IMG/VR virus record: IMGVR_UViG_3300038393_001148
Source: a virus
Taxonomy: Duplodnaviria; Heunggongvirae; Uroviricota; Caudoviricetes
Length of the DNA stretch: 64,000 nt
Reading direction: 5' to 3' (one strand)
The translations under genes and the position numbers were made by a program. Shown one piece after another: positions 1-14,116 of this stretch. Under the pieces are notes generated by a model. That model made no database searches. It was not told the origin of the DNA and worked only from the letters and a program-made list of their open reading frames with translations. Numbering within the stretch: position 1 is the stretch's first letter; each line of letters begins with the position of its first letter.

Positions 1-193
1 AATAATTTGGCCCGACCGAATAGCCTAGCTCCTCGCAGGCTGCAAGCGTGGTCGCTACGATCTCGTGCTGATGAACCCCATAGCCGGGGCAGAGCGGATC
101 GAAGAGGAGCCGCCATTGTTCGTCCTCCCCCCAGAGCAGCCAGGCGTTGGTATGCCTAGCATCGCTGCCTGTGGTGACGTAGTAGTAGTTCAT
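1..193 (-). CDS. Partial small protein whose C-terminus runs off the window. The N-terminus carries the Trp-rich module (WLLWGEDEQWRLLF) seen in the zinc-ribbon family.
   Basis: Minus-strand ATG at 193 overlaps the stop of gene 190..474 (ATGA). The translation MNYYYVTTGSDARHTNAWLLWGEDEQWRLLFDP resembles the N-termini of 190..474 and 1213..1515. The track ORF 65..451(+) on the opposite strand is judged spurious. Confidence 0.45.
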   Translation of the reverse strand, partial: MNYYYVTTGSDARHTNAWLLWGEDEQWRLLFDPLCPGYGVHQHEIVATTLAACEELGYSVGPNY

Positions 194-474
194 GGCTTGC
201 ACTCCGGGCAGAGGTATTCCGCATCCCAGGCTTGGAACGTGGCCTCGCAGCTTCCGCAAAAACGGTCCGGGATCTTGGGCTCGATGGTCCGCCAATCGGT
301 GTCCCGATACTTGCTCGGGGGATCGGCATTAAGCTGGAGATTCCCATTGCTGTGCCGGACGTTCCATAATTCTTGCTGCTCGTCCCAGAACAGCGTCCAC
401 GATTTGTCTAGACACTCGCAGAGACGCGGACGCTTGTCCTCGTCATCGTAGATCCACTCGGGAAGCTCCCCCAT
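190..474 (-). CDS. Zinc-ribbon family paralog (W-rich N-terminal module plus C-terminal CGSC-x11-EYLCPECK)
   Basis: Track ORF of 94 aa with WDEQQELW and a C-terminal four-Cys ribbon. It is paralogous to its neighbours. Confidence 0.6.
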   Translation of the reverse strand: MGELPEWIYDDEDKRPRLCECLDKSWTLFWDEQQELWNVRHSNGNLQLNADPPSKYRDTDWRTIEPKIPDRFCGSCEATFQAWDAEYLCPECKP

Positions 475-515
475 AGCCCTAGCAGATTACCAGGAACAAT
501 ATCTACTTACAAGTC

Positions 516-671
516 CTAGTTCAATCCCAACAGGAGGATGACGACACCGGTCGAGCAGATGACGCCTGCCACGAGAGATGAAGCATGCCCACCGCTACGG
601 AAGTAGTGGTGGAAGTTCAACGCGGCGAAGGCCGCATTTAGCATGATGAAGATGTTTGCGAGGAAGAACAT
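516..671 (-). CDS. 51-aa hydrophobic membrane peptide, missed by the 60-aa ORF cutoff
   Basis: Hand translation of the minus strand gives MFFLANIFIMLNAAFAALNFHHYFRSGGHASSLVAGVICSTGVVILLLGLN*, which contains two hydrophobic stretches. Confidence 0.35.
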   Translation of the reverse strand: MFFLANIFIMLNAAFAALNFHHYFRSGGHASSLVAGVICSTGVVILLLGLN

Positions 672-685
672 AGCCGCTAACTCTA

Positions 686-973
686 TCAGGAACAATAACT
701 ACAATCAAGTCGGCATGAATGACAGAGATAGTCCGCGTTGATGGCGTAGATGATGCCTTCGCAGTTGGCGCAGGCTCGATGAGGAATGACGCTGACGTTG
801 GCCTGCCACTGATCGTACTGGATCCCTACGCTAGTGCGGACGGTGTTGGGATCGTCGCGCTCATGCCACATGTGCCAGCCCTGCCAGGACTCGTCGTACC
901 AGATGACCAACCAGTAGTCCCTGATCCCAGATCGGACCTTGGCGCAGTAGGTCTGAGAACGGTCACGCTCCAT
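686..973 (-). CDS. Zinc-ribbon family paralog (WYDESWQGW ... CANCEGIIYAINADYLCHSCR)
   Basis: Track ORF 686..1075. An internal Met (MERDRSQ...) at 973 removes the overlap with the upstream gene and matches the length of the other paralogs. Confidence 0.55.
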   Translation of the reverse strand: MERDRSQTYCAKVRSGIRDYWLVIWYDESWQGWHMWHERDDPNTVRTSVGIQYDQWQANVSVIPHRACANCEGIIYAINADYLCHSCRLDCSYCS

Positions 974-1220
974 CTCTGCACCTCGGACAGAGATAGTCGA
1001 GGAAGCTTGGCCCGCCACACTCTGCGCACTGGAGCCAGAGCCAGTGGAGCGGGCTGAAGTTCGCGGCCTTAACATAGTCGTCAGCTAGCAGGCCGGGATG
1101 CCAATCGCGGTCCAGAGCGTGCCGCCCGGGACTTCTACACGAACTCCAGTGCCAACGCTCAGCTACCTTCCACATCATCACGAATTCGCTGCCGTAGTGA
1201 TAGAAGCGACAGTCATCCAT
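963..1220 (-). CDS. Zinc-ribbon family paralog (CAECGGPSFLDYLCPRCR)
   Basis: Track ORF of 85 aa. The C-terminal motif is nearly identical to those of 1213..1515 and 1525..1845. Confidence 0.6.
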   Translation of the reverse strand: MDDCRFYHYGSEFVMMWKVAERWHWSSCRSPGRHALDRDWHPGLLADDYVKAANFSPLHWLWLQCAECGGPSFLDYLCPRCRDGA

Positions 1221-1515
1221 GGCGGCAGCCCTTGCATAGATAATCCAGGAACGATGGCTCCTCGCACTCGGCGCAGACGGGCCATGATAATGGACAACCG
1301 CTGTCGATGATCTTCCAATCCTTCAGGAAGGAATCCAACTCTAACTCTCCCGAGGAGAAGGGCTCATCGGGAGCCAGCGAGCACGCCAGCCCCAGGCCCT
1401 CCTCGTCGTTATAGGCCCATAGCTCCTGGTCGTCATCCCACCAGATGAGATAGCAGCGCCCGATGCGCCGTTCTCGGACAACGCCTTCGAAGCTATGAGG
1501 GAGGAGCCAGCCCAT
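1213..1515 (-). CDS. Zinc-ribbon family paralog (YLIWWDDDQELW ... CAECEEPSFLDYLCKGCR)
   Basis: Track ORF of 100 aa. It has both the W-rich N-terminal module and the canonical ribbon. Confidence 0.65.
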   Translation of the reverse strand: MGWLLPHSFEGVVRERRIGRCYLIWWDDDQELWAYNDEEGLGLACSLAPDEPFSSGELELDSFLKDWKIIDSGCPLSWPVCAECEEPSFLDYLCKGCRHG

Positions 1516-1524
1516 CGCCCTACA

Positions 1525-1845
1525 TTAGCGGGCAGAATATTTCACGTCAAGCCTGCATCGTTGACAGAGATAGTCTAGGAACGATGGCTCAGCACATTCC
1601 GCGCAGCGCGGCCAGGGCACCGGACAACTGCGCTCTACCTCCACGAAGCCGCTCCTGCGCATCTCGGTGAGGTTGAGGCAGATATATTGGCCCCGGTCGG
1701 TCCGCAGGGTTTTGGAGTTGTCGTTCTCCATCACGTCCCTGACCCAGTGATAGCCGGAGATCTTCCGCTGCTTGGCGCTGAGCCGATGGCTCATCATGAG
1801 ATAAACATCGTCCCGAGGATGATAGAGCAGACGGCCGTCAGTCAT
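1525..1845 (-). CDS. Zinc-ribbon family paralog (CAECAEPSFLDYLCQRCR)
   Basis: Track ORF of 106 aa. The DNA of the C-terminal motif (gagccatcgttcctagactatctctg) is almost identical to that of 1213..1515. Confidence 0.65.
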   Translation of the reverse strand: MTDGRLLYHPRDDVYLMMSHRLSAKQRKISGYHWVRDVMENDNSKTLRTDRGQYICLNLTEMRRSGFVEVERSCPVPWPRCAECAEPSFLDYLCQRCRLDVKYSAR

Positions 1846-2171: not shown

Positions 2172-2228
2172 GCCTTGTAGCCTTGTAGAGTCCCTTCAGA
2201 GACCCTTGTAGAGACCCTTGTAGAGTAC
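2172..2228. repeat. Five tandem copies of a 9–13 bp unit CCTTGTAGAG(A/T)(C/A)C at the edge of the divergent control region
   Basis: Read directly: gccttgtag / ccttgtagagtc / ccttcagagac / ccttgtagagac / ccttgtagagtac. Confidence 0.6.
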
Positions 2229-2767: not shown

Positions 2768-2796
2768 TTGACAGATAAGGTCCCTTCGGGTATCAT
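2768..2796 (+). promoter_or_regulatory. Candidate promoter TTGACA-N17-TATCAT. The ATG of gene 2803 lies 6 nt downstream of the -10, which implies a leaderless mRNA.
   Basis: TTGACAgataaggtcccttcgggTATCATaggcatATG. Confidence 0.45.
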
Positions 2797-2802
2797 AGGC
2801 AT

Positions 2803-2988
2803 ATGCGCGTTCGTATCAGCTACACAGTAGACGTGGATGATCAATTCCGACGCGAAATCAATCGCTGGTATGGCCGCCCTGGGCTCGCCAGCCGCGAGGA
2901 GGTCAAGCGCTGGTTTGAGCGGAACGGCTCCTCAATGAACGATGATCTATCCCTTCAGGCCGACGCCGACGAACGCGACGAAGAATGA
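2803..2988 (+). CDS. Hypothetical 61-aa acidic protein, first gene of the rightward early block
   Basis: Track ORF. It sits immediately after the leaderless promoter, and its stop overlaps the next start. Confidence 0.4.
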   Translation: MRVRISYTVDVDDQFRREINRWYGRPGLASREEVKRWFERNGSSMNDDLSLQADADERDEE

Positions 2989-3239
2989 CTACCCCATATC
3001 GTATCGCCTGTCGTCATGGGCATGAGGCCTCCGTTCATCGAAACGGTCTATGCGTTCACTGCCTTATTGAGGGGAAGAACGAGCGAGCGTTTTATCTCTA
3101 CGAGGACGGACGACGACGGCAGATTTTTACTAATCATGGGGAAATGATTCCCCTTCCCGTCTTTACTCGTTGCGCCGAATGCAATGAGTTCGTTGACGAG
3201 GAGGGGGATTATCTCTGCCCCGGATGCCGTTATGGATAA
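2985..3239 (+). CDS. Double zinc-binding protein (CRHGHE...CVHC plus CAECNEFVDEEGDYLCPGCR). Paralog of 4956..5216.
   Basis: Track ORF of 84 aa. It aligns along its full length with 4956..5216. Confidence 0.65.
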   Translation: MTTPYRIACRHGHEASVHRNGLCVHCLIEGKNERAFYLYEDGRRRQIFTNHGEMIPLPVFTRCAECNEFVDEEGDYLCPGCRYG

Positions 3240-3549
3240 CGCCTGGCTCCTCATCCTTCGAGGAGAGGAAGAGAATTACCACCGTTGGATCTGCGTCTGG
3301 TACGAGAACGACATGTTCTGGGATAGCTACATGAATCCCAAGGCGGACACCATTCAATCCTTTCCCGAGGGCACAAGCGGCTATGAGTCCCTGCCAGAAT
3401 ATGACTCCAGCTTCAAGGTGATTCCCAACGCCTCTCCTCTCCCCGTGGGCGTCTGCGGGGGATGCGAAAGCCCCGCCCTCTTGGGCGACTATCTGTGTAA
3501 GAAATGTAGAGCGTCTAATGACGAGGACTCTGCTAGGCTGACGCCATGA
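3232..3549 (+). CDS. Zinc-ribbon family paralog (WICVWYENDMFWDSY ... CGGCESPALLGDYLCKKCR)
   Basis: Track ORF 3184..3549. The internal Met at 3232 gives the W-rich N-terminus and removes most of the overlap. Confidence 0.6.
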   Translation: MDNAWLLILRGEEENYHRWICVWYENDMFWDSYMNPKADTIQSFPEGTSGYESLPEYDSSFKVIPNASPLPVGVCGGCESPALLGDYLCKKCRASNDEDSARLTP

Positions 3550-3830
3550 TCCGGGTACGAATCGTGGGCTTGGCGGCAGGCGGCAAGACGCCCTTCGACG
3601 GGAAGTTCCTCAAGGAGTACGACCCGGGACGCGACGGCGTGGATCCCGATGGGAGCCCCATGCTCGCGCATATCGTCTGCACCGACGATCCCGAGCAGGC
3701 GCTCGTACTCGAAGATCTCGCGGCGCTGCACGAACTGTGGACGCGCGTAGACCCGCGCCGTCCCACTCGGCCGGACGGCAAGCCCAACATGCCGCTGACG
3801 GCGTTCACGGTCGCAACGGAGCAGGCGTGA
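3546..3830 (+). CDS. Hypothetical 94-aa protein
   Basis: Track ORF, start/stop coupled to 3549. Confidence 0.4.
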   Translation: MIRVRIVGLAAGGKTPFDGKFLKEYDPGRDGVDPDGSPMLAHIVCTDDPEQALVLEDLAALHELWTRVDPRRPTRPDGKPNMPLTAFTVATEQA

Positions 3831-3996
3831 CCTGGAAGATCGATGGGCTGGACGAGGGAGAGTTTCTAACCCTCTGGCAGCTTCGCTATCTGCGGGCGGA
3901 CGGGACGCCCTGGCCGGGGATCCATCTGGCGCGGCTGATGACGGCCATCACGATCCTGCGCGGCGCTCATCCCGAGCGGCTTGTTCCTTACCATCC

Positions 3997-4025
3997 TTGA
4001 CAGAGAATTTTCATCTCAGTAAGGT
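3997..4025 (+). promoter_or_regulatory. Candidate promoter TTGACA-N17-TAAGGT. The ATG of gene 4032 lies 7 nt downstream (leaderless).
   Basis: TTGACAgagaattttcatctcagTAAGGTgagtccATG. The same -10 hexamer TAAGGT occurs at 6737. Confidence 0.45.
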
Positions 4026-4031
4026 GAGTCC

Positions 4032-4301
4032 ATGACTGATCGAGCGAAAGAGCGCGACGGGGTTTACTGCGGTAGTCCCGGAGCGATCCGCGCGGCAGCA
4101 ACGGCGTATCCCGGCGCAGATTCGGCAAAGCTTGCCGACGCACTAATCGCGTCTCACCATCCCGTCCTTGGGCTGGATCGGTCGGTGTGTCTCCGTGACA
4201 TCATCGAAGCGTTAGACAAGGAAGCTGGCATGGGCTTCGGCGACCCGGATGACCCGTTCTGGTATGTGGCGAGGTTCCTGGAGCGCAAGTTCAATGGCTG
4301 A
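4032..4301 (+). CDS. Hypothetical 89-aa protein
   Basis: Track ORF directly downstream of the leaderless promoter. Confidence 0.45.
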   Translation: MTDRAKERDGVYCGSPGAIRAAATAYPGADSAKLADALIASHHPVLGLDRSVCLRDIIEALDKEAGMGFGDPDDPFWYVARFLERKFNG

Positions 4302-4611
4302 GACGCCGATGTTCGATGGAACGCCATATGCCGGGTCCCTCTGGCGGGACTATAACGATCATATCTTCCGCCTAGACAGGATCACCGAAGATTTGTCTCG
4401 GCGAGCCTCCGACGAAAAATTCGGCCTGGAGCCTTTGCTGACCCTCCACGGGACGATGATGTATTGCCCCGACTGGTGCCAGGATCCCCGGCATGCCGAT
4501 GGGCAGCCCTACGAGACCTGGGCGCTGCCCAAGGATCTGCCGAGCGGCGAGATCTTCGGCTGGTCCCTCATGTGGATGAACAATGGACCGTCGAGCCATG
4601 ACTCGGATTAG
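4294..4611 (+). CDS. Hypothetical 105-aa protein
   Basis: Track ORF 4249..4611. The internal Met (MAETPMF) overlaps the upstream stop (ATGGCTGA). Confidence 0.45.
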   Translation: MAETPMFDGTPYAGSLWRDYNDHIFRLDRITEDLSRRASDEKFGLEPLLTLHGTMMYCPDWCQDPRHADGQPYETWALPKDLPSGEIFGWSLMWMNNGPSSHDSD

Positions 4612-4623
4612 CGAGCTAGGACA

Positions 4624-4962
4624 TTGATGGACGATCATCCCAACAACAACGTCAGAGGTGGCCTGGGCATCCTCAAGGATGCGCAAGATCAACGCTGGCA
4701 GCATATAGGAATGCGGGTCCTCGGACCCGCCGAGCGTCTTGACATCTTCTGCCTGTTGGATAATGACGATGGCTGTCAGACCAAGTTCGTCCAACCACAC
4801 GATCCCTGGCTGGACAGCCTAGTGGCTTTTGTTCCGTCCATGCGCGACATGAGTTGTTGCGATAGGTGCGGTGGATGGTGGAATAAGAGAATGTTTGACT
4901 GGCTGAATGCCCCGGATTATATGTGCCCATTTTGTCGTTACGACCTTGACGACCAATGGTAG
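4624..4962 (+). CDS. Zinc-ribbon family variant (CCDRCGGWW...DYMCPFCRYD)
   Basis: Track ORF of 112 aa with the family signature at its C-terminus. Confidence 0.55.
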   Translation: MMDDHPNNNVRGGLGILKDAQDQRWQHIGMRVLGPAERLDIFCLLDNDDGCQTKFVQPHDPWLDSLVAFVPSMRDMSCCDRCGGWWNKRMFDWLNAPDYMCPFCRYDLDDQW

Positions 4963-5216
4963 GCATCCGGGGAAAAGACTACATAATCTCGTGCCGCCAT
5001 GGGCACGAGGATACTCTCCATCAAGCCGGAGATTGCAGAGAATGTCTTAAGCGTGGCCGCAAGGAATCCGCTTTCCGCCTCTGGAAAGACGGAACGATAG
5101 AGACTTACTATGATCAGCCATTGCCTCCCATGTGCCGCTGCGCAGAGTGCGACAAGTTCATCGCGGCCAGCGATGATTATCTCTGCGAAGACTGTAGAGT
5201 CCAGGTGGATAGATGA
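4956..5216 (+). CDS. Double zinc-binding protein (CRHGHE...CRECL plus CAECDKFIAASDDYLCEDCR). Paralog of 2985..3239.
   Basis: Track ORF of 86 aa. Confidence 0.65.
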   Translation: MVGIRGKDYIISCRHGHEDTLHQAGDCRECLKRGRKESAFRLWKDGTIETYYDQPLPPMCRCAECDKFIAASDDYLCEDCRVQVDR

Positions 5217-5419
5217 ATATCTGTTCCCTCTGCCATAACGAAGTGATTATCAGGACGCTTCCGGCGAGCGGGGTCATGATCGAGGAATGCCGGACGTGCA
5301 AGACGGCAACGAACTGGCATACGCATACAAAAATGAACTGCACGCGCCTCTGTCATTGCGGCAAGGGCATTTGGCAAGACGACTATCTATGCTGCTGGTG
5401 TCGGAGCGAACATGACTAA
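5213..5419 (+). CDS. Double zinc-ribbon protein (CSLCHNE...CRTCK ... CHCGKGIWQDDYLCCWCR). Upstream partner of cassette copy 1.
   Basis: Track ORF of 68 aa. Confidence 0.55.
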   Translation: MNICSLCHNEVIIRTLPASGVMIEECRTCKTATNWHTHTKMNCTRLCHCGKGIWQDDYLCCWCRSEHD

Positions 5420-5705
5420 CGAAGAATTCATCGCGGCGGCTGAGTACTACAGGTGCCCGTTCTTCGCCAAGAGCGACCCGTGGGCAGCGACCTGGCTCGT
5501 GCGCTGGAACGGAACAGAATGGGAAGAATCCCGCTCTGATAAAGATGGCCTGCTTAAGGACGAGTTCTCCCCAATGGGCGGCATCAGCCACTTCACACTC
5601 CGATGCTGGGAGTTAGCGTGGAAAGATAGATTCCTGTTCTACAACCAGCCCGCTAGGCCTATTGCCGAGGACCTTTATGAGCACATGAGATCGGTGGACC
5701 CTTGA
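5412..5705 (+). CDS. 'MTNEEFIA...RPARPIAEDLYEHMR' family protein, copy 1
   Basis: Track ORF of 97 aa. It shares its N-terminus and C-terminal motif with 5953..6243 and its C-terminal motif with 7588..7890. Confidence 0.6.
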   Translation: MTNEEFIAAAEYYRCPFFAKSDPWAATWLVRWNGTEWEESRSDKDGLLKDEFSPMGGISHFTLRCWELAWKDRFLFYNQPARPIAEDLYEHMRSVDP

Positions 5706-5953
5706 TGGACATTGATCCGGGCCGCTGGTGCGGCGAATGCCGAATTCTGGCCTGCACACCGGGAGATTATCTCTGCAAGCACTGTCGGCTGGACGATGGC
5801 GCACCCATCGTCCAGTGGTGGATGAATGGGGCGATGAAGGGCGTCTACGCGGAGGTATATTTTCTCTCGAATTACGAGGGTAAGAATTATGTCTGCGAGA
5901 CGAAGCCTCCGCATAGGGTGTACGCTGTCGGGCCTACGGGGATCAAACGCTGA
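5702..5953 (+). CDS. Protein with the zinc ribbon at its N-terminus (CGECRILACTPGDYLCKHCR)
   Basis: Track ORF of 83 aa. Confidence 0.55.
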   Translation: MMDIDPGRWCGECRILACTPGDYLCKHCRLDDGAPIVQWWMNGAMKGVYAEVYFLSNYEGKNYVCETKPPHRVYAVGPTGIKR

Positions 5954-6243
5954 TGACTAACGAAGAATTTATCGCTGATGCCAAGTTTTACAAACGCTCG
6001 TTTTACGCTAAGAGCCACAGGCGAAGTGGAACCTGGCTTCTCCAGTGGAAGGAGGGCGAAGGTTGGCAAGAACGCGAAATAAGACGGGACGAGTGGGTAT
6101 CGGCCACGACCATTAACCACTTTTTCACCACTCCGGACAATGATTGGAAACTATCCTGGGCCGACGATACTCTGATCTATGATCGACCTGCCAGGCCCAC
6201 GGCTGAAGACTGGTATGAACACATGAGACTAAGGGACCCTTGA
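5953..6243 (+). CDS. 'MTNEEFIA...RPARPTAEDWYEHMR' family protein, copy 2
   Basis: Track ORF of 96 aa. It is a tandem paralog of 5412..5705. Confidence 0.6.
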   Translation: MTNEEFIADAKFYKRSFYAKSHRRSGTWLLQWKEGEGWQEREIRRDEWVSATTINHFFTTPDNDWKLSWADDTLIYDRPARPTAEDWYEHMRLRDP

Positions 6244-6267
6244 CAGGGGCCCTTGCGCAAAATATTC
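6239..6267 (+). promoter_or_regulatory. Candidate promoter TTGACA-N17-TATTCT
   Basis: TTGACAggggcccttgcgcaaaaTATTCT. It overlaps the stop of 5953..6243, and gene 6289 begins 21 nt downstream. Confidence 0.35.
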
Positions 6268-6288
6268 TGATCCGGTAGGATCCGCCGC

Positions 6289-6492
6289 ATGGCTACTTAC
6301 AAGAAGGTCATCAACCTCCAGCCCGGCGACCAGATCATCCGGGACCCGAGCATCCGCTTTCCGGATCTCCGGTTCTTGGGAACGGTGGAGCAGGTCATCG
6401 CCCTCGGCGATGACGCGGACACGTTCGAGATCAAGCTCCAGCCTTCCGGATCCTTCAAGCGCCCGGCCAAGCATCTCCTGGAGGTGCAGTAG
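6289..6492 (+). CDS. Hypothetical 67-aa protein
   Basis: Track ORF. Confidence 0.4.
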   Translation: MATYKKVINLQPGDQIIRDPSIRFPDLRFLGTVEQVIALGDDADTFEIKLQPSGSFKRPAKHLLEVQ

Positions 6493-6711
6493 ATGGCCCG
6501 CACCAGGGACGAGTGGGTGCAGGCCATGGGCGAGGACGTGAAGCTGATCAACTACTACCTGCGTCTACGCCGCGAGGATGAGGAGCCCACCGCGCTCTCC
6601 TTCGCCATGGCCCTCAAGGAGGCCCGGCGACTTCAGTCCGATATCTATCGCTATGCCCACGATATCTACGGGATTAGCAAGGAAGACATCGACGCGGAGC
6701 GCCCGCTATGA
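6493..6711 (+). CDS. Hypothetical 72-aa protein
   Basis: Track ORF directly abutting the gene at 6492. Confidence 0.4.
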   Translation: MARTRDEWVQAMGEDVKLINYYLRLRREDEEPTALSFAMALKEARRLQSDIYRYAHDIYGISKEDIDAERPL

Positions 6712-6713
6712 AG

Positions 6714-6742
6714 TTGACACACCTCACTTAGCCTGGTAAGGT
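6714..6742 (+). promoter_or_regulatory. Candidate promoter TTGACA-N17-TAAGGT. The ATG of gene 6750 lies 7 nt downstream (leaderless).
   Basis: TTGACAcacctcacttagcctggTAAGGTagaagtcATG. This is the same geometry as at 3997. Confidence 0.45.
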
Positions 6743-6749
6743 AGAAGTC

Positions 6750-7073
6750 ATGGATCTACAGAATCTACGGCTTGCTTACACCAAGGGGCAGCGAGCCGCG
6801 TTGAAGCTCCTACTGGAGGATCCGCGCCTGCCCGAGGACGCCAAGGAATTGGTGCTCGAACATCATGGCTACACCGAGGCCATGATCGCGGAGATGGAGG
6901 CTCCTCAATATTCTTCTGAGGAACTTGAGGCCATCGCCCATGTGGAAGAGCGCATCAGGGAGGACGGCGCTCATAGCGTCTCCGGATGCCCGCGCTATTG
7001 CCGCGCCATGTGCCAATATCGGAAGACGATTAAGGAGCTTGAAGCGAAGGGCTGGAAGCCTACAAGTCAATGA
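6750..7073 (+). CDS. Hypothetical 107-aa protein
   Basis: Track ORF downstream of the leaderless promoter. Confidence 0.45.
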   Translation: MDLQNLRLAYTKGQRAALKLLLEDPRLPEDAKELVLEHHGYTEAMIAEMEAPQYSSEELEAIAHVEERIREDGAHSVSGCPRYCRAMCQYRKTIKELEAKGWKPTSQ

Positions 7074-7315
7074 CCTTCCGACACAAAGATAACAAAGAGT
7101 CCCGATGGGAATGGCTGCCCGAGATCTCGGCGCTGAAGGTTGTTGATGGGCCACGAGCGGGCGAAATTATCGGCAACGGTCAATACACGCAGAAATATAT
7201 CTCACAGTACATCGAGTCCGGCGTCTGGATCGAAGTGTATCAATTCCGTTGCGCTAACTGCGATGCAGGAGTGGGAGAACTCGACTATCTATGTCGGAAG
7301 TGCCGAGATGTCTAG
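7070..7315 (+). CDS. Zinc-ribbon family paralog (CANCDAGVGELDYLCRKCRDV)
   Basis: Track ORF of 81 aa. Confidence 0.6.
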   Translation: MTFRHKDNKESRWEWLPEISALKVVDGPRAGEIIGNGQYTQKYISQYIESGVWIEVYQFRCANCDAGVGELDYLCRKCRDV

Positions 7316-7333
7316 AGGCGAATATACAGGACA

Positions 7334-7591
7334 ATGGGGATCATGATGTACTGCCCACTCTGCGGAGTCGCAAGTAGGGATGGTATCGGACGCCCCTGGT
7401 GCCAACGACACGCTCTACACGGATATAAGCAGCCCAAGCTCTATAACCCTGATACGGGAGAAGCATGGTTCCCGTGCGCAGAGTGCGGTAAGACACGAGA
7501 GATCATCCTTGGCGGGGCCGTCCACGCCATCTCCAAGGTTCCCGATGATGATTATCTATGCGTCACTTGTCGTAGGAAATTCGATTCATGA
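7334..7591 (+). CDS. Double zinc-ribbon protein (CPLCG...CQRH ... CAECGK...DDDYLCVTCRR). Upstream partner of cassette copy 3.
   Basis: Track ORF of 85 aa. Confidence 0.6.
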   Translation: MGIMMYCPLCGVASRDGIGRPWCQRHALHGYKQPKLYNPDTGEAWFPCAECGKTREIILGGAVHAISKVPDDDYLCVTCRRKFDS

Positions 7592-7890
7592 ATAAGTCTC
7601 AACTCCTTGGATACACCTTCTTCACAGGTGACTCAAAACGATATATCATCCTTGAATGCAGCCCTCCCCATCCTGGCATGATAGAGGTGTACGGATGTCT
7701 TCCAGGGACGCTTCAACCAAATTTGCACGGCGATCATTCTCCCTGGGAAATCGACACATTGGTTAATTGCTTTAAACAATACCCCTGGACGATGGATGTC
7801 TTTGGATTTGGACTTGAGTATATTTATCCCCTCCGTCCTACCGCAGAGCAATTTTACGAAATGCTGAGAAGATCCGATGCTCTCGCATGA
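7588..7890 (+). CDS. '...RPTAEQFYEMLR' family protein, copy 3. Its C-terminal motif is shared with 5412..5705 and 5953..6243.
   Basis: Track ORF of 100 aa. Confidence 0.55.
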   Translation: MNKSQLLGYTFFTGDSKRYIILECSPPHPGMIEVYGCLPGTLQPNLHGDHSPWEIDTLVNCFKQYPWTMDVFGFGLEYIYPLRPTAEQFYEMLRRSDALA

Positions 7891-7970
7891 AGAGACATAG
7901 GATTGCCGCCCAGGGAGATTATTTGTGCGGAACCTGCCGCGTGCTTGACGAGAATATTTCGCCCTGGTAA
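7887..7970 (+). CDS. 27-aa micro-ORF carrying the family signature (MKRHRIAAQGDYLCGTCRVLDENISPW). It is either a degenerate relic or a functional mini-copy.
   Basis: Hand translation. Its ATG overlaps the stop of 7588..7890 (ATGA). Confidence 0.3.
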   Translation: MKRHRIAAQGDYLCGTCRVLDENISPW

Positions 7971-7980
7971 CCTTGGCGCA

Positions 7981-8340
7981 ATGCCCTACGTTTCTTACGC
8001 CAAGATGGTCTCGCCTGGTCGGACTAGCGTCTATCATATCGCAGAACGTTATGTCGGTCGGACTCGCTGGTCCCCGTGCTGCGGGGCTCATAACTACGGA
8101 CAAAGAATCTCTCTTCGAGACCTTACTGAGTCGGATGCCTCTCTCAGGGAGTGCAAGCAATGCGCTCAGATCATCTTAAAGCGTCGATCAGCTATTGACA
8201 AGCTTATAGGTCCAACGGGAACCTCAAAGCTGGTCCTTATGGATCTTGAAAGGGCCGTGGACGAATACGACATGGCAGATACCGTCTTCGGCCACGTCGT
8301 CAAGGACATTGTGTTGAAGCACTATCATCAGGAGGAATAG
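7981..8340 (+). CDS. Hypothetical Cys-rich protein (CCGAHNYG...CKQCAQ)
   Basis: Track ORF 7903..8340. An internal Met is preferred because the 5' part overlaps the micro-ORF in another frame. Confidence 0.35.
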   Translation: MPYVSYAKMVSPGRTSVYHIAERYVGRTRWSPCCGAHNYGQRISLRDLTESDASLRECKQCAQIILKRRSAIDKLIGPTGTSKLVLMDLERAVDEYDMADTVFGHVVKDIVLKHYHQEE

Positions 8341-8663
8341 TGCCTTTCACAGTTACCGGGTCCACGCGGGTCTATCGACATCAGGTCATTAGTTCTGGAA
8401 AGACTGTACATGTCGAAATCGAGATCAGCGATGCCCAAGTCTACGCTTGGCACGCCCAACTAGAAGCTGAGCGTGAAGCTCGCCTAAGGGAAGACGCTAC
8501 CTCCATCTGTAGCGACTGCGAAAGCCGTCCTAGTCAAGATGGAGACTACCTTTGCAAAGAGTGTCGTGACCTGCTAGACTACGTTCCTCCCGAGCCTGTG
8601 ATAGATGAGCTAGAGAAGCTTCGTCTTGAGGCTATGGAAGAAGGATATAGGTCTGCCATATGA
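8340..8663 (+). CDS. Zinc-ribbon family paralog (CSDCESRPSQDGDYLCKECRDLL)
   Basis: Track ORF of 107 aa. Confidence 0.55.
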   Translation: MPFTVTGSTRVYRHQVISSGKTVHVEIEISDAQVYAWHAQLEAEREARLREDATSICSDCESRPSQDGDYLCKECRDLLDYVPPEPVIDELEKLRLEAMEEGYRSAI

Positions 8664-8789
8664 AAATCCAACGAATCAGAAACACCAAGACTTTCGCCTT
8701 TCGCGTCACCACGAAGAAGGGCACCAAGGTCATCTCCCGACATCGGCTGAAGCTGCGCACTCCGAAGCTTCCTCCAAAGAGGAGGCAAG

Positions 8790-9161
8790 ATGGCTACGGA
8801 GGCTGACGTTCTCCCCGGTTCGGTATGGGAGTACAAGGACACCCAGGTGCAGGTCGAGGTGGTGAAGCGAAACGGAAATTTGGGTACTTGGCGGGTAACG
8901 TCATATCCAACCTACCCCTTATACGACGGAAAGTATTGGTACACCGGCAATACTGTTTCAAGTCTTGTCCGTAATGCGTATTTAGTTCAAGATGATCCTC
9001 AAGAAGGTGAGCTAACCGATCTTGACGTTATGAATTATCACGTCGCTGATAGCCCCGTGAAGAGGATTTCCCGTTCTCGCGGAGACTTCATTATCCATTT
9101 AGAGGACGCAATCCTAATCGCGTCAGGCCTGAAGCTTAAACTGGTGAAGGACGATGAGTAA
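8790..9161 (+). CDS. Hypothetical 123-aa protein
   Basis: Track ORF with a strong Shine-Dalgarno sequence (AAGAGGAGG) 5 nt upstream. Confidence 0.5.
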   Translation: MATEADVLPGSVWEYKDTQVQVEVVKRNGNLGTWRVTSYPTYPLYDGKYWYTGNTVSSLVRNAYLVQDDPQEGELTDLDVMNYHVADSPVKRISRSRGDFIIHLEDAILIASGLKLKLVKDDE

Positions 9162-9336
9162 GGTAATCCAAGAGGGAAACACCCTCAAGCTGAGGGGCCA
9201 AGGCTTTGGCACCATGACAGAGGCCGGTTCCGGCGAGAAGCAACTCATGAGCCTTATCTCTGCCATCGGCGTGACCTCCCCGGAAGAGAAGCAGGAGTGG
9301 ATGAATGGGTTTATTCCGCCGACGAGAGAAGACTGA
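9154..9336 (+). CDS. Hypothetical 60-aa protein
   Basis: Track ORF, coupled to the flanking genes. Confidence 0.3.
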   Translation: MSKVIQEGNTLKLRGQGFGTMTEAGSGEKQLMSLISAIGVTSPEEKQEWMNGFIPPTRED

Positions 9337-9679
9337 GGAGCTACGGATGAGATATCCAGCAGACTTGGCTGCCGAGTGGTATATGGAATCGGTTAATGCG
9401 CAGCCTGATGACCATAAGAGGTGGACTCGGGTCTTTATTCAGATCCGCCGCCCCGGTCGTGATAGTGTTTGCGACTTTGGGTCCGTGGACATTCGAGATC
9501 CCTCCTTTGAAACAAATTACAAGGAACTTGTGAATAAAGCACGGAAGCGTGTGGACCTACTAATAAGTTTCACTGGCGATGGAGAGCCACCAGAAGGTAT
9601 CTGCGCCGAATGCGGCGGGGACGCTTCAGCCAACGATTTCCTCTGCGAGACCTGTAGGAAGTCAGCCTCCGCAATATAA
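9305..9679 (+). CDS. Zinc-ribbon family paralog (CAECGGDASANDFLCETCRK)
   Basis: Track ORF of 124 aa. Confidence 0.55.
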   Translation: MGLFRRREKTEELRMRYPADLAAEWYMESVNAQPDDHKRWTRVFIQIRRPGRDSVCDFGSVDIRDPSFETNYKELVNKARKRVDLLISFTGDGEPPEGICAECGGDASANDFLCETCRKSASAI

Positions 9680-9686
9680 TCTTTGT

Positions 9687-10115
9687 ATGCCTTGGGAAGA
9701 CGTAGCACAGCCATCTGACATTACCGTCCATCGCCCTAATCCAGAGATGGATCCTTTCTACGATGGGCGAGGCGGGAACGACTATGAGGGTTTCCGAGGA
9801 AGAATCCCCCTAATCTACAACCCGCGAGAACGTCAGATTTGGACCGGCGAGCCCAACTGGTTTCACCATGACACCATCGAACATCATGGGCTTACCTCTA
9901 GCCAGTCGAGTCGTTATAATTATGATACGGCCTACCATGGATACTTTAATGGCGGGCCTGAGTGGGGCAGGGGAGAGCTAAGGTGGTATAATACTCCCCC
10001 CGAACCGGGGGCGCACGAGAACGTTGTTAATGCTCTAACCCAGGCTGGCTATCAGGTTAATCCCCAGACTCAAGCAGACGACCTAGAGAACGACGATCTC
10101 TGGGAAGACGACTAG
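9687..10115 (+). CDS. Hypothetical protein rich in W, Y and G, starting MPWEDVAQ
   Basis: Track ORF 9579..10115. The internal Met lies just after the upstream stop. Confidence 0.4.
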   Translation: MPWEDVAQPSDITVHRPNPEMDPFYDGRGGNDYEGFRGRIPLIYNPRERQIWTGEPNWFHHDTIEHHGLTSSQSSRYNYDTAYHGYFNGGPEWGRGELRWYNTPPEPGAHENVVNALTQAGYQVNPQTQADDLENDDLWEDD

Positions 10116-10151
10116 ACACGAAAAGGTCTGTTTGCTAGCCTTTCAGGCTGA

Positions 10152-10676
10152 ATGCCTGATAAGCCGCTACTACTACTTGATGTTGACGGAGTGCTGTGTC
10201 CCTTCGAAGGGATGATGCGCTATGAGAAGGCCGCTGGCCTAGATGTGGAAGGGATCCCCGGCTTCGAATGGAGCGAGTGGGGATGCGTTTTCTGGCGCAA
10301 GGAGAACGCTGAGCGCGTCCGCCGTCTCGCCCAATCCTTCGAGATCCATTGGTGTACGGGATGGTGCGAGGACGCCAACGAGATTATCTCTCCGCTCCAT
10401 GGCCTCCCCTCCTTCCCGGTCGTCCCGCTAGAGACAGCCTCCTATCTCGGCCAACACGACATCCACTGGAAGCACTCTGCTATCGAAGAATATGTCGGGG
10501 ATCGCCCCTACGCCTTTATCGATGACGACATCACTCATAAGGGCGTAGAGTACGCCGAGAGACGCGGCGTCCCGACGCTGTGGGTCCATACCCGCCCGAG
10601 CGAGGGCATTCTCGATAAACATGTCGAGAAGCTTGAAGAATTCGCGCGTCTTTGCGAGAATGTTTCCGATGCCTAA
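10152..10676 (+). CDS. HAD-superfamily phosphatase-like protein
   Basis: Motif I LLLDVDGVL (DxDGxL) and motif IV FIDDD are read in the translation. Confidence 0.65.
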   Translation: MPDKPLLLLDVDGVLCPFEGMMRYEKAAGLDVEGIPGFEWSEWGCVFWRKENAERVRRLAQSFEIHWCTGWCEDANEIISPLHGLPSFPVVPLETASYLGQHDIHWKHSAIEEYVGDRPYAFIDDDITHKGVEYAERRGVPTLWVHTRPSEGILDKHVEKLEEFARLCENVSDA

Positions 10677-11121
10677 CCCGCCCTTCGGCCTCCCGGCCAC
10701 GCTTGATTCGGCCATCGAGGTCTGGAAGCACCGCAACCTCACCAAGGAGCAGCGGGCGCAGTTCAAGGATAAAAAGCTGATACGGATTGCCTACCCGTAT
10801 CAGCCCATGGGAAACTATATCGGCTCCCCCCGCGCGACTGGCAGCCGCCCTTGGTACCCGCACCCGCATGAGGTGCGACCATGTTGCTGGGATGTCAAGG
10901 CAACATCCGTCAATTTCTTTACCTGGACCTGGCATAACCACTGCCGCACCGCCCGCCATGTAGCCCACCTATTCGACGTGAGCGAGGTCGAGCTACGTCG
11001 TCATGTGGGAATAAAGTCGGCCCCGTCACACTGTTCATGCGGGCGTTTCCGGCCCAAGGCCGACTATTTGTGCGGAAAGTGTCGAGAGAAGTTCCTTGAC
11101 ACCGAAATTTTGGACAAGTAG
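10669..11121 (+). CDS. Zinc-ribbon family paralog (CSCGRFRPKADYLCGKCREKF)
   Basis: Track ORF 10621..11121. The Met at 10669 (MPNPPF) overlaps the stop of the HAD gene. Confidence 0.55.
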   Translation: MPNPPFGLPATLDSAIEVWKHRNLTKEQRAQFKDKKLIRIAYPYQPMGNYIGSPRATGSRPWYPHPHEVRPCCWDVKATSVNFFTWTWHNHCRTARHVAHLFDVSEVELRRHVGIKSAPSHCSCGRFRPKADYLCGKCREKFLDTEILDK

Positions 11122-11131
11122 GCTTGTCACC

Positions 11132-12091
11132 ATGACAAAACAGAGTAGTACCAAGTTCTATGCCCTAGCCGTGCTCACCGTGGTTGGTGTGATCGTGGCG
11201 CTGTGGCTGTTCTTCTCATGGATCGGCGCATTCCAGAACCCCAAGCCGGGGAACGTTGGCATCTGCCAGCACACCGGGTGGAAGGGTTCGGGCACCTGCG
11301 GTGTCCTCCCGGCCGGTTCCAAGAAGAAGAACATCGGCATCCAGAACGAGCTTCGCAACCTGCCGATCACTCAGCGAAATTACTTGCTGACGGCAGACGC
11401 GGCTCGCTCGGATTCCAAGAACGTCGATAACGTGGTCCTCCCGACCGCTGACGGCGTGCGCGTGGGGATCGAGGGACAGGCGTTGTTCACCCTGGACGGC
11501 GATCCCAACAAGGCGCTGAGCTTCTACAAGAAGTTCTACCAGTTCAGCCCTTGGACCAGCAACGGATGGTCGTCCTGGCTGGACGTTCGCTTCCGTCCCA
11601 TCCTTGAGAACGCTCTACGTGAGGAAGTCGGCGGATATAACTGCACCGATCTCAACCCGTCCTGCGTGGCAATCAAGGGCGGCGCTGCGAATGGGACGAA
11701 GGCCAATGCCAATATCTCGCTCATCCAGGGCCGGATCGCGGACCAGCTTCGTCAGGATCTCAAGGACCGTCTCGGCGAGGAGTATTTCGTCAATGTACAG
11801 TTCCAGTTGACGAAGGTGACTCTTCCGGGCCTTCAGGACGAAATCGACCGCTACAACGCGGCGAAGGCGTCCCAGGCCACTGCGCAGGCCCGTGCAGAGC
11901 AGGTCAAGCAGGTCGCCATCGGCGAGCGCCAGGCTGCCGAGGAGAAGGCCAAGGGCATCCGTGCCCTGAACGAGGCCTACAAGAACTCCACGACCAAGGC
12001 ACAGATCGACGCCATCGCGGCCCTCCCGCGTAACCTCCAGACTCTCGTCCTCGGCGGGAGCGGAACCGGGCTCACGAAGCTCATCAAGTAG
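11132..12091 (+). CDS. SPFH/band-7-like membrane protein
   Basis: It has an N-terminal TM helix (FYALAVLTVVGVIVALWLFF). The central domain and the A/E/K/Q-rich C-terminal tail ending ...RNLQTLVLGG resemble prohibitin/HflC-type proteins. Track ORF 11096..12091. Confidence 0.5.
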   Translation: MTKQSSTKFYALAVLTVVGVIVALWLFFSWIGAFQNPKPGNVGICQHTGWKGSGTCGVLPAGSKKKNIGIQNELRNLPITQRNYLLTADAARSDSKNVDNVVLPTADGVRVGIEGQALFTLDGDPNKALSFYKKFYQFSPWTSNGWSSWLDVRFRPILENALREEVGGYNCTDLNPSCVAIKGGAANGTKANANISLIQGRIADQLRQDLKDRLGEEYFVNVQFQLTKVTLPGLQDEIDRYNAAKASQATAQARAEQVKQVAIGERQAAEEKAKGIRALNEAYKNSTTKAQIDAIAALPRNLQTLVLGGSGTGLTKLIK

Positions 12092-12098
12092 TACAACT

Positions 12099-12141
12099 AG
12101 GGCGAACGGTTCTGGGGAGGGTTCGATTCCCTCCCGCCCTA
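12099..12141 (+). other. tRNA-like minihelix: a T-arm (GAGGG-TTCGATT-CCCTC) stacked on a 6–7 bp acceptor-like stem (AGGGCGA/CCGCCCT). It lies 8 nt after the stop of the SPFH gene.
   Basis: Read directly: tAGGGCGAacggttctgGGGAGGGTTCGATTCCCTCCCGCCCTaa. The T-loop GTTCGATTCC is canonical, but the element is too short (43 nt) to be a complete tRNA. Confidence 0.45.
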
Positions 12142-12183
12142 ATATGACTAAGTACCTGACAATTCAAACTCAGGACGGCCAGG

Positions 12184-12564
12184 ATGCCTGAGCGATGGGA
12201 GCAGAAGACCACTAAGACACCGGGCCCGCGTCGGCAGATCACGCTGGACATCGGCGAGCGCTCGATTACATCCTTGCTCACGGGTGAGAAGGCCGACCGC
12301 ATCTGGATCACCGAGAACGACGATGGCTCCTACGGTCTGCACGCCACCACCCCGGTGGGCGTGACCCGCGCCGCTGGCGTCAAGCCGGTCTCTGACGTTG
12401 TGGTCGAGTGCATGAACGAACTGGTTGACAGCATCAACGCCAACCTGGACGAGATGCCGCAGCCGGTGCTCGACACGCTCGACAGGGTGACCGAGCGCTA
12501 CCTCAACTACAACGGCGAGGTCGCCGAGGCCAACGCTTCTGACGACGATCCGGAGTGTAGGTAA
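12184..12564 (+). CDS. Hypothetical 126-aa acidic protein
   Basis: Track ORF. Confidence 0.45.
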   Translation: MPERWEQKTTKTPGPRRQITLDIGERSITSLLTGEKADRIWITENDDGSYGLHATTPVGVTRAAGVKPVSDVVVECMNELVDSINANLDEMPQPVLDTLDRVTERYLNYNGEVAEANASDDDPECR

Positions 12565-12565
12565 T

Positions 12566-12850
12566 ATGCAGCGCCTAGCAGAAACGGCACTCTTCTTGTT
12601 CGTCATCTTCATGGTGATCCTCTTCCTGGCCTGGCTCTATGACCGGGCTCGGAAGCAGATCCGGTGGACTGTCGTCCGGGAAGAGACGGACGCTTTTACC
12701 GAGTTTTGGATCGCCAAGGGACGCCAGCGCAAGCATATTGGTCGCGCCCGAGTGGAGGCCGATAACTACGACGAGCACCTAGCGGAGCTAGAGGCCGAGG
12801 CCGAGGACCAGCGCGACAGACGCAATCAGGCCGAGTCGGCGCTACCGTGA
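12566..12850 (+). CDS. Hypothetical protein with an N-terminal TM helix
   Basis: Track ORF. The N-terminus reads LFLFVIFMVILFLAWLY. Confidence 0.45.
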   Translation: MQRLAETALFLFVIFMVILFLAWLYDRARKQIRWTVVREETDAFTEFWIAKGRQRKHIGRARVEADNYDEHLAELEAEAEDQRDRRNQAESALP

Positions 12851-13320
12851 CCATGCGGATTCCTGACGGGATCCCCGACATCCCTCCGTACCACATAGAA
12901 GAGAGAATTATGCTTGGAGAATTGAAGTTCGATTTCAGTCGCACCGAGATCATGGAGCGAGTGAAGGAAAACCGCGATAAGCATGCTGAAGAATTCGCTG
13001 TCGCGCTGAAGGGCTACTACCTGGAGGTTCAGGAGCAGCTTGAGAAGATCGCTGAGGAGGCGCAGAAGGCTTCCGTAAAGGCGGGCAAGGAGAAGGACCC
13101 CAAGTCTCTCACCTACTCCGTCAATGCGCGTAAGCCCGAGGATCACACCGGCGACTACGACCGGATTCTCGATATGCTTCGCCTGGCGAAGAACGAGAAC
13201 ATCGAACTGGACGAGCAGGAGTTCGCCCAGTACGTCCGCGACGAATGGGCCTGGAAGCAGCGCTTCACCGAGACCTCCTCTACCTATCTCTCCAAGTTCG
13301 GAACGAGGATCAGCGGATGA
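12847..13320 (+). CDS. Hypothetical coiled-coil protein (157 aa)
   Basis: Track ORF. Confidence 0.45.
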   Translation: MTMRIPDGIPDIPPYHIEERIMLGELKFDFSRTEIMERVKENRDKHAEEFAVALKGYYLEVQEQLEKIAEEAQKASVKAGKEKDPKSLTYSVNARKPEDHTGDYDRILDMLRLAKNENIELDEQEFAQYVRDEWAWKQRFTETSSTYLSKFGTRISG

Positions 13321-13505
13321 CGGTGAGGGATATGTCGCTGACGGAGATGTCTCCAAAGAAGATCCGCCTTCTTAGGGACTTCGGTCCTTATTCGAAGGGG
13401 GAGGTGGGGGATCTCTACAAGAGAGATGATGAACTCGCCTGGGTATATTTTGATGGGGATGACAAGCGCATCCTCTTCCACGACGAATACGAAGACGTGA
13501 AGTGA
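13317..13505 (+). CDS. Hypothetical 62-aa protein
   Basis: Track ORF 13245..13505. The Met at 13317 overlaps the upstream stop (ATGA). Confidence 0.35.
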   Translation: MTVRDMSLTEMSPKKIRLLRDFGPYSKGEVGDLYKRDDELAWVYFDGDDKRILFHDEYEDVK

Positions 13506-13690
13506 GCCAGATTTCTATTGTGGTGACCCTGAAGAAGGGAGCCAGCGTTGCCGCCGTACAGACGGGGCTGCGCAACGCCGGATTTGATCAGAAGCTCGCA
13601 ACCGACACCAGCTTCTATGGGACCATCGATGAGGACCAGTACAGGAACCTCGCGGTGATCACGGGTATTGATTCCGTCAAGCCCATGTGA
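13502..13690 (+). CDS. Hypothetical 62-aa protein
   Basis: Track ORF. Confidence 0.35.
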   Translation: MSQISIVVTLKKGASVAAVQTGLRNAGFDQKLATDTSFYGTIDEDQYRNLAVITGIDSVKPM

Positions 13691-14115
13691 TGTTCCCTGC
13701 TTCTGACACGGTATATGGCCTGCCTGTAGCGAAACTACAGGCAGGCGATTCCATTATCGGCCAGGATGATAGAGAATATCTGATCGAAGAAATAACGCCT
13801 CGTTGGGCCAACGCCCGCACGCGCGCAGAGGCCTCATTGACTGGTGACCTATTGACCGGCTTTGACATTAAGGCGCTTGATGTCAACGGGCTCGCGGTAA
13901 AGACCTTCATCGCGAAGAATGCCCGTCTCAACGCGATTAAACGACGCATCGATGACGAAGACGCCGAACGCCTCTTCGGAATTAAGGTGTGTCTTGAGTG
14001 CGAAGAGATGCGTTCAATCGCTCGTTACTGGGCCGACGACGACTATATCTGCAAAGTGTGTAGGGGGGACACTCATGAAACGGAAGCTTCATTTCAACCG
14101 CGCCAGCCACGATAG
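13687..14115 (+). CDS. Zinc-ribbon family paralog (CLECEEMRSIARYWADDDYICKVCRGD), directly upstream of the AAA+ ATPase
   Basis: Track ORF of 142 aa. Confidence 0.55.
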   Translation: MMFPASDTVYGLPVAKLQAGDSIIGQDDREYLIEEITPRWANARTRAEASLTGDLLTGFDIKALDVNGLAVKTFIAKNARLNAIKRRIDDEDAERLFGIKVCLECEEMRSIARYWADDDYICKVCRGDTHETEASFQPRQPR

Positions 14116-14116
14116 T

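Follow-up and report, generated by a model that had tools for sequence, protein, structure and literature searches.

How did six small genes come to lie as three adjacent pairs within less than 3 kb of a large phage genome? The genes concerned occupy positions 5213 to 7890 of IMG/VR record IMGVR_UViG_3300038393_001148, of which we have analyzed a 64,000-nt stretch, referred to here as the window. A first-pass annotation had read them as three copies of a two-gene cassette, each consisting of a double zinc-ribbon gene (A, B and C) followed by a partner gene (P1, P2 and P3; Table 1). All six open reading frames (ORFs) are indeed present on the plus strand, and each partner is directly preceded by a zinc gene, so that the adjacency is real. 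The actual feature of the locus, however, is a new clade-specific multigene family characterized by a short zinc tail, within which is embedded a small group of ORFan paralogs, the partners, possibly derived from that family. We consider it likely that the locus as a whole is a zinc-tail array of a myovirus shaped by tandem duplication of single genes, that the partners are tail-less members, and that their adjacency to ribbon genes follows from the density of the family.

A multigene family with a C-terminal zinc tail

The family is defined by a C4 module of ~25-30 residues with the consensus CxxC-x6-10-D-Y-L-C-x-x-C-R. Its four Cys do not vary, conservation of D, Y and R is 90% or more, and the first and third Cys are 13-16 residues apart in typical members. 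The module is found on small proteins and lies almost always 1-16 residues from the C-terminus; the exceptions are gene B and the gene at 8340-8663, in which 30 residues follow it. The N-terminal parts of the proteins are unrelated or barely related to each other. A six-frame scan found [YFW][LMIV]CxxCR in 20 ORFs of the window, and a 21st member ends in K. Eight more genes, all leftward and each ending in the module, occupy the 2.9 kb upstream of the window, which was taken from a near-identical contig (L003:1-2931), for a total of 29 ORFs in 67 kb. By the most complete gene calls (Logan), the module is present on 12 of the 39 genes of the rightward array and, in its dense part, on 10 of 24.

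Synonymous codons vary freely within the module: the conserved D is encoded 13 times by GAT and 15 times by GAC, the first Cys 18 times by TGC and 11 times by TGT, and all six Arg codons are used. It is therefore the protein sequence of the motif that has been maintained, and the copies are old, not the product of recent homogenisation at the DNA level. The same observation bears on the status of the smallest ORFs. The JGI gene calls omit 4956-5216 and two of the six genes in question (A and C), as would be expected if some small ORFs were not genes and the cassette were in part an artefact of ORF finding. We give this explanation almost no credence: the Logan calls contain these ORFs, the family motif is in frame near the stop in all of them, with free synonymous variation across the paralogs, a Shine-Dalgarno-like site lies ahead of each start, and the sole indel in the six ORFs is in frame. 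Given the conservation of the motif at the protein level, the ORFs missed by the JGI caller are real genes.

Several features of individual members were also recorded. The leftward array, including the genes upstream of the window, comprises 13 consecutive small genes, of which 13 end in the CxxC-x6-10-DYLCxxCR tail. About ten N-terminal domains of the family, most of them in the leftward array, share a hairpin of the form hhhW-x5-7-W and, ahead of the tail, a [SC]P[LV]P linker. In the rightward array, 2985-3239 and 4956-5216 form a second pair of paralogs (45% identity, E 1.5e-20) with ~1.7 kb of other genes between them, and each carries an N-terminal C-x-H-x-H ... CxxC site besides its zinc tail. 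The product of 22136-22708 (186-190 amino acids, aa) combines a match to DUF5679 (E 2.7e-9) with the tail, and its gene is divergent from a head-protease-like gene at 22822-24990.

Distribution of the family and its relatives

The window is DNA of a large, uncultivated myovirus, with genes for a tail sheath, baseplate wedge, head protease and tail fibres; the sheath shares only 27-30% identity with its counterparts in Rhodococcus phage E3 and in Gordonia and Mycobacterium myoviruses. A megablast search of 50,697 records of isolated phages gave no match for 4900-8400, and tblastn found none there for the DUF5679 protein with its tail. IMG/VR contained zero related loci for P1 or for a HAD gene (HAD_SAK_2) located nearby. 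At least 10 JGI and Logan samples yielded assemblies of the same phage, the longest contig being 165 kb. The ten contigs carrying the locus are all at least 99.4% identical, so a population-level ratio of nonsynonymous to synonymous substitutions (dN/dS) is impossible.

The six proteins have no match in Pfam, PHROG, NCBIfam or PADLOC at curated cut-off or significance, and the same holds for 14 further zinc-tail members except for the DUF5679 match noted above; all 20 proteins were scanned against Pfam and PHROG and ten also against NCBIfam and PADLOC. No toxin-antitoxin or defence family of Pfam, NCBIfam or PADLOC was matched at curated cut-off. A word-indexed search with the tail alignment returned the phage's own proteins only. 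The DNA pattern for CAEC-x6-9-DYLCxxCR gave 0 matches in IMG/VR and a single one in GTDB genomes, which was out of frame and treated as spurious. It also gave ten matches in metagenomes, of which six were out of frame. Six matches to the pattern that lack an in-frame protein motif (L015, L016, L018, L019, L021 and L023; GC 0.61, one from an Acidobacteriaceae metagenome-assembled genome) probably reflect chance or a conserved unrelated gene. In-frame C-terminal tails are present on contigs L017 (4 in 4.6 kb), L022 (3) and L014 (2), and two of the proteins on these contigs have extended similarity to window genes.

A syntenic relative, L024, was located using the HAD_SAK_2 gene as an anchor. Its core proteins are 40-80% identical to those of the window, and of its 10 zinc tails 8 lie within 6 kb upstream of the HAD gene, tandem paralogous tail genes included. 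L025 and L027, which are less closely related, carry 3-4 tails each. A hidden Markov model (HMM) of the tail matched 18 ORFs in these three contigs and 11 in L017, L022 and L014. Conserved orthologs in relatives were found for the tail-bearing genes 10669-11121 and 13690-14115, whose orthologs bear tails as well, and for 22136-22708, which is conserved in L024 (60% identity) and L027. There are no zinc tails in the first 50 kb of Rhodococcus phage E3, and the expansion is therefore not found in that sampled actinobacterial myovirus. The zinc-tail family is thus a previously undescribed, clade-specific multigene family.

The partners are distributed differently from the tails. No partner homolog or partner motif was found in the related loci examined (L024, L025, L027 and the metagenome contigs). 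A word-indexed search of 5.8e9 clusters with P1 returned a 98% identical strain variant of P1 itself and nothing else, and a full HMMER search of 1.84e9 protein representatives with a profile of the three partners returned only P1, P2 and P3 themselves apart from matches judged spurious. The latter were a few long repetitive proteins that matched over several short stretches only. On the evidence of these searches, the partner family is an ORFan.

Zinc genes A, B and C

Compared by sequence, genes A, B and C are three different members of the zinc-tail family and not copies of one another. Pairwise BLASTP alignments among them are confined to the eight residues of DYLCxxCR, or at most 16 around it (E 0.07, 3e-4 and 0.03). 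All three proteins are Cys-rich; their description as double zinc ribbons holds for A and C and fails for B, which has a single module. In gene A, Cys at 4, 7, 26 and 29 are followed by C43/C47/C49 and C60/C61/C63 (DDYLCCWCR). Its second knuckle is intact and its first reads CxC/CxxxC, and it is a marginal member by its score against the tail HMM (6.6 bits, E 0.28). Gene C has C7, C10, C23 and H26/H29, plus C48, C51, C76 and C79. Its tail, CAEC-x24-DYLCVTCR, contains the full motif with an unusually long loop of 24 residues and matches the HMM in two pieces (27.3 bits, E 9e-8). The motif Arg is followed by 3 residues in gene A and by 4 in gene C. Gene B is the sole member among 29 with an N-terminal module (PGRWCGEC-x10-DYLCKHCR), after which comes an extension of 53-54 aa (53 residues after the module) containing the W-hairpin-like sequence IVQWWMNGAMKGVYAEVY.

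Partner genes

P1 and P2 are tandem paralogs, as had been proposed: they align end to end with 46% identity (E 8e-27). Both begin with MTNEEFIA and share PARPxAEDxYEHMR near the C-terminus; the longer form RPARP given for both is true for P2 alone, P1 having QPARP. Codon comparison gave a dN of 0.44 with saturated dS, and 18 of 46 codons for identical residues differ synonymously. The duplication is therefore old, with selection acting at the protein level. Similarity at the DNA level extends from the ATG (ATGACTAACGAAGAATT) to the stop (GACCCTTGA), which are the limits of the partner gene, and P2 ends in RDP on the same GACCCTTGA as P1. With similarity bounded by ATG and stop, the repeated unit is the partner gene alone.

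P3, which had been taken for a third copy, matches P1 (E 2e-4) and P2 (E 3e-6) over its C-terminal 22-48 residues only. When 870 ORF segments of the window were searched with an HMM of P1 and P2, P3 was the best match other than these two themselves (E 0.007, ~30 residues aligned). P3 is thus a probable distant relative of P1 and P2 as judged from its C-terminal part, with no evidence to extend the relationship to its N-terminal two-thirds.

The AlphaFold2 (AF2) model of P1, built from an alignment of 3 sequences, is unusable, with a predicted local distance difference test (pLDDT) score of 46; at that score the predicted topology is a helix followed by six strands and, at the C-terminus, a second helix that covers the conserved motif AEDLYEHMR. 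P1 and P2 both contain a TWLVRW-x4-W hairpin similar to the one in ~10 intact zinc-tail members. On inspection of the sequences we rejected the idea that AEDxYEHMR is a degenerate DYLCxxCR knuckle; the spacing from D to R is off by one residue and zero ligand residues are left. The only indel inside the six ORFs is a 6-nt in-frame deletion (5552-5557) found in one JGI assembly. It shortens P1 from 97 to 95 aa and falls in a loop that also varies between P1 and P2.

Adjacency of partners and zinc genes

If ribbon and partner formed a functional module that had been triplicated as a unit, with the ribbon genes evolving much faster, the three pairs would be accounted for at once. The partner starts overlap or abut the stops of the zinc genes (by 8, 1 and 4 nt; gene A overlaps P1 by 8 nt at its 3' end and gene C overlaps P3 by an ATGA), which is compatible with translational coupling, but start/stop overlaps of 1-8 nt are the rule throughout this tightly packed rightward array. 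A GGTGG Shine-Dalgarno-like site precedes gene A. When gene order was permuted, all three partners were preceded by a ribbon gene with p = 0.024 in the 39-gene array and p = 0.058 in the dense sub-array of 24 genes; if the tandem pair P1/P2 is counted as one event, p rises to 0.09-0.18. The adjacency is largely to be expected because zinc genes make up 12 of the 39 genes of the array (10 of 24 in the dense part), and we conclude that it mainly reflects the density of the family and is at best weakly significant.

Other observations also weigh against a triplicated two-gene unit. The ribbon genes have no similarity beyond the eight-residue knuckle common to the whole family, whereas P1 and P2 have retained 46% identity. 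Their architectures also differ: A has a double site and a degenerate tail, B an N-terminal tail and an extension, and C a tail with a 24-residue insert. No DNA repeat spans both genes of a pair, since the duplication ends where the P gene ends, and an all-against-all search found no other regional pair. Nor is there conserved synteny in related genomes, in which tails are kept without partners (L024 has ten zinc tails and zero partners). What stands of the earlier proposal is a duplicated and diverging family of partners, with P1 and P2 in tandem and P3 a distant relative; neither a ribbon-partner unit of duplication nor a conserved functional pair is supported. We therefore regard the cassette model as improbable, and prefer the duplication of single genes within a dense array.

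Zinc modules that follow the partners

The zinc modules lying downstream of the partners raise a different possibility. Of the modules in the rightward array, 11 have the D of their DYLC 165-386 nt beyond the stop of the gene before; for gene B, which comes after P1, the figure is 60 nt, and for an orphan module after P3 it is 27 nt. The two shortest distances belong to the two modules that follow partners (rank probability 1/78), and both of these modules are in the -1 frame relative to the preceding partner. The orphan remnant has a Met in place of the second Cys of its first knuckle. An ATG at 7887 that overlaps the P3 stop (ATGA) would encode a 27-aa peptide from it. The remnant, which was not in the training set of the tail HMM, scores 19.7 bits against it (E 2.1e-5). 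The P1/B and P3/orphan junctions are identical in 8-9 assemblies, and the orphan sequence is identical in nine, so that these arrangements are not assembly errors.

The simplest reading of these modules is gene fission, although we advance it tentatively and think it somewhat doubtful. The partners would be the N-terminal domains of zinc-tail genes, severed from their tails by a -1 frameshift mutation; it is likewise possible, and no more certain, that P1 and the beginning of gene B once made up one gene, and P3 and the remnant at 7917 another. The two short distances fall exactly after partners, and the shared -1 frame points the same way. Gene B alone has its module at the N-terminus, with a lead-in (PGRWC) that resembles the pre-tail linkers of intact members (PLSWPVC, PVPWPRC and KLPWLKC). 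The remnant after P3 is still recognized at E 2e-5 and has lost one zinc ligand, as expected for decay, and the TWLVRW-x4-W hairpin of P1 and P2 is like that of ~10 intact members. On the other hand, hhalign of the partners with the W-hairpin N-domains of intact members aligned only 10 residues (P 0.14, not significant), and the best phmmer match of the partners to tail-bearing members had an E value of 0.03 (set of 29). A fused homolog is absent from every database searched, P1 and P2 stop at the same position and no tail lies downstream of P2, and the 54-aa extension of gene B is not present in intact members. As a corollary, the halves may still act as a non-covalent pair in the order partner then ribbon, the reverse of that in the first-pass annotation.

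Programmed -1 ribosomal frameshifting would join the same segments, P1 to the module of gene B and P3 to the remnant, and yield a mixture of tail-less and tailed products, as for the phage tail chaperones G/GT. In its favour, the two modules that follow are in the -1 frame, each starting no more than 60 nt past the stop, and at the end of P1 (C-CCU-UGA) it is conceivable in principle that, with the stop codon still waiting, a P-site tRNA-Pro re-pairs on CCC. A slippery heptamer of the form X XXY YYZ in the zero frame, however, occurs in neither overlap (5600-5705 and 7780-7890), which argues against programmed frameshifting. Moreover, the first knuckle of the remnant is one Cys short, and P2 ends like P1 but its -1 frame contains 13 codons of sequence unrelated to the tail. 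We find this mechanism very improbable and retain fission as the tentative explanation of the modules that follow partners.

Feature coordinates and genome context

The coordinates of the genes under study and of the other zinc-tail genes are collected in Table 1.

Table 1. Partner genes, zinc-tail genes and associated features (window coordinates)
Feature	Position	Strand	Description
Ribbon gene A	5213..5419	+	68 aa; N-terminal CxxC-x18-CxxC site and divergent C-terminal zinc tail
Partner 1 (P1)	5412..5705	+	97 aa, without a Cys-based site
Ribbon gene B	5702..5953	+	82-83 aa (ATG at 5705); single canonical module at N-terminus, residues 9-27
Partner 2 (P2)	5953..6243	+	96 aa, tandem paralog of P1; no zinc module downstream
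Ribbon gene C	7334..7591	+	85 aa (82 aa from 7343); CPLC-x12-C-x2-H site and zinc tail
Partner 3 (P3)	7588..7890	+	100 aa; probable distant relative of P1/P2 through the C-terminal motif LRPTAEQFYEMLRR only
Orphan zinc-tail remnant	7818..7970	+	-1 frame relative to P3; ends in IRCSRMKRHRIAAQGDYLCGTCRVLDENISPW and stop
Zinc-tail genes, upstream part of rightward array	2985-3239, 3184/3232-3549, 4627-4962, 4956-5216	+	Span 2985..5216
Further rightward zinc-tail genes	7070-7315, 8340-8663, 9305-9679, 10621/10669-11121, 13690-14115	+	Span 7070..14115
Leftward zinc-tail array	190-474, 686-1075, 963-1220, 1213-1515, 1525-1845	-	Span 190..1845, then eight genes upstream (L003:1-2931)
Zinc-tail genes beside head-protease gene	21835-22170, 22136-22708	-	Latter is DUF5679 plus tail
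Sigma-70-like promoter match	6240..6268	+	TTGACA-17-TATTCT, 10/12 positions; consensus match only

The promoter match in Table 1 overlaps the P2 stop and lies within a 45-nt gap ahead of the next gene. It is one of the two best such matches, the other being at 2768-2796 (+ strand, 11/12 positions), just ahead of where the rightward array begins. In the region separating the leftward array from the rightward one, window positions 2197-2279 are indel-polymorphic in one population variant (L008), with deletions of ~11 and 17 nt and a 1-nt insertion. The gene that follows the orphan tail, 7981-8340, has a different Cys pattern (CC-x22-25-CxxC) and falls outside the DYLC family.

Farther to the right, the block at 10152-15121 is syntenic and conserved in L024 and largely also in L025. 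Its order is the HAD_SAK_2 phosphatase-like gene, a zinc-tail gene, a Band_7 protein, several small genes, the zinc-tail gene 13690-14115 and a DUF5925+AAA ATPase. A 1236-aa protein encoded at 17030-20740 has no PHROG hit; the homolog in L024 has 851 aa and matches it in several blocks at 44-72% identity, which suggests a modular, variable protein.

Proposed role of the zinc tail

An AF2 model of the tail (alignment of 15 sequences, pLDDT 78) shows a knuckle and a short loop, after which a helix starts at the second CxxC. In a Foldseek search of PDB the best fold match was TraR bound to E. coli RNA polymerase (6n57_M; probability 0.90, template modelling score 0.54), which at an E value of 0.25 is non-significant; the predicted resemblance to TraR should be taken as a lead and not as a result. 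A sequence search of PDB with the tail found nothing significant, only generic knuckle matches.

The locus is probably a stretch of a fast-evolving early-gene array of small genes, evolving through tandem duplication and divergence of single genes, with P1 and P2 as one such pair and P3 as an old, weak relative. Our best guess is that the zinc-tail proteins are early effectors of host takeover or anti-defence, in which the variable head may confer target specificity and the constant zinc tail may serve as a shared handle. That D, Y, L and R, which are not ligands, are conserved across unrelated heads suggests a shared interaction surface, and the handle might bind one common macromolecule, be it a nucleic acid or a hub protein (RNA polymerase, for instance). 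The partners would be tail-less members of the same programme, which within this scheme would probably stem from zinc-tail genes whose tail a frameshift had cut off.

Four points tell against this interpretation. The early timing derives from gene size, position and orientation only, and the function proposed is a guess. The suggestion of a common target draws on the conservation of D, Y, L and R together with the non-significant fold match to TraR. The p value of 0.024 for the full 39-gene array is not negligible, and some real linkage of partners and ribbon genes is possible. Finally, the near-identity of the ten locus contigs leaves selection on individual genes and junctions unmeasurable.

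A bolder version, which we consider rather unlikely, is that the zinc tail is a common address tag docking about thirty effector heads on one hub (host RNA polymerase, as for TraR, or nucleic acid), and that the partners are fission products working with the tail that follows (gene B in the case of P1, the 27-aa half-knuckle peptide in that of P3). If true, modular effectors of a phage would here have been caught in the act of splitting.

A ribbon-partner module as originally claimed would have little significance; the interest of the locus lies more in the family and in the possible fission origin of the partners. One phage has no fewer than 29 copies of the family, and related phages, likewise uncultivated, carry it in several copies; it has no qualifying match in Pfam, PHROG, NCBIfam or PDB. 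Such expansions usually mark the interface of a virus with host defences or with core machinery, and one conserved 25-residue handle on many heads is a simple experimental entry point to what the tail binds. The locus also illustrates how an ORFan such as the partner family may arise, by frameshift truncation of a family member followed by tandem duplication.

Comparison with known systems

The C4 zinc finger of DksA and TraR (zf-dskA_traR) resembles the zinc tail: both are small C4 sites in which a helix starts at the second CxxC, with a hydrophobic residue just before it (LCxxC). DksA and TraR bind in the secondary channel of RNA polymerase and are also encoded by phages and plasmids. Their signature has a loop of 17 residues (CxxC-x17-CxxC) and they have an N-terminal coiled coil, whereas the loop of the zinc tail has 6-10 residues and no coiled coil was recognized here. 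None of the proteins scanned matched zf-dskA_traR in Pfam at E ≤ 1 or ≤ 0.1, and the tails are not placed in the DksA/TraR family.

Generic small zinc ribbons (Pfam DZR_2, DZR, Zn_ribbon_15 and Zn_Ribbon_1, bL32 and archaeal CPxCG proteins) likewise have two CxxC knuckles 6-25 residues apart, and sub-threshold matches to such families recur (13-17 bits, against gathering thresholds of 25-29). They differ in being without the conserved D-Y-L, the terminal Arg and the extreme C-terminal position of the zinc tail.

In its mode of evolution the array is like the multigene families of African swine fever virus and the ankyrin and F-box expansions of giant viruses, in which arrays close to one end of the genome block change through tandem duplication, divergence, truncation and loss. 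Members of such families are strain-specific and homologs elsewhere are absent. Those are eukaryotic viruses and other folds, and the present array gives no sign of a role in host range or immune evasion.

The nearest parallel described is found in Bacillus phage G, in which a lineage-specific expansion of ~35 ZnR copies has been suggested to provide specific transcription factors or structural DNA-binding proteins (Iyer et al. 2021, Viruses 13:63, PMC7824862). As here, a large phage carries dozens of small paralogs built around one C4 zinc module and clustered in arrays. The phage G proteins gp32, gp34, gp35 and gp37 have an N-terminal ribbon (CPIC ... C-x3-4-C) followed by a helical domain ending in KENDRYL, whereas the module described here is C-terminal, has the DYLCxxCR signature and is attached to unrelated heads. 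The tail HMM found no match in the 85 kb of phage G that were checked (L029 and L030). By the motifs and profiles compared, the ZnR expansion of phage G is an analogous expansion of a different, unrelated family.

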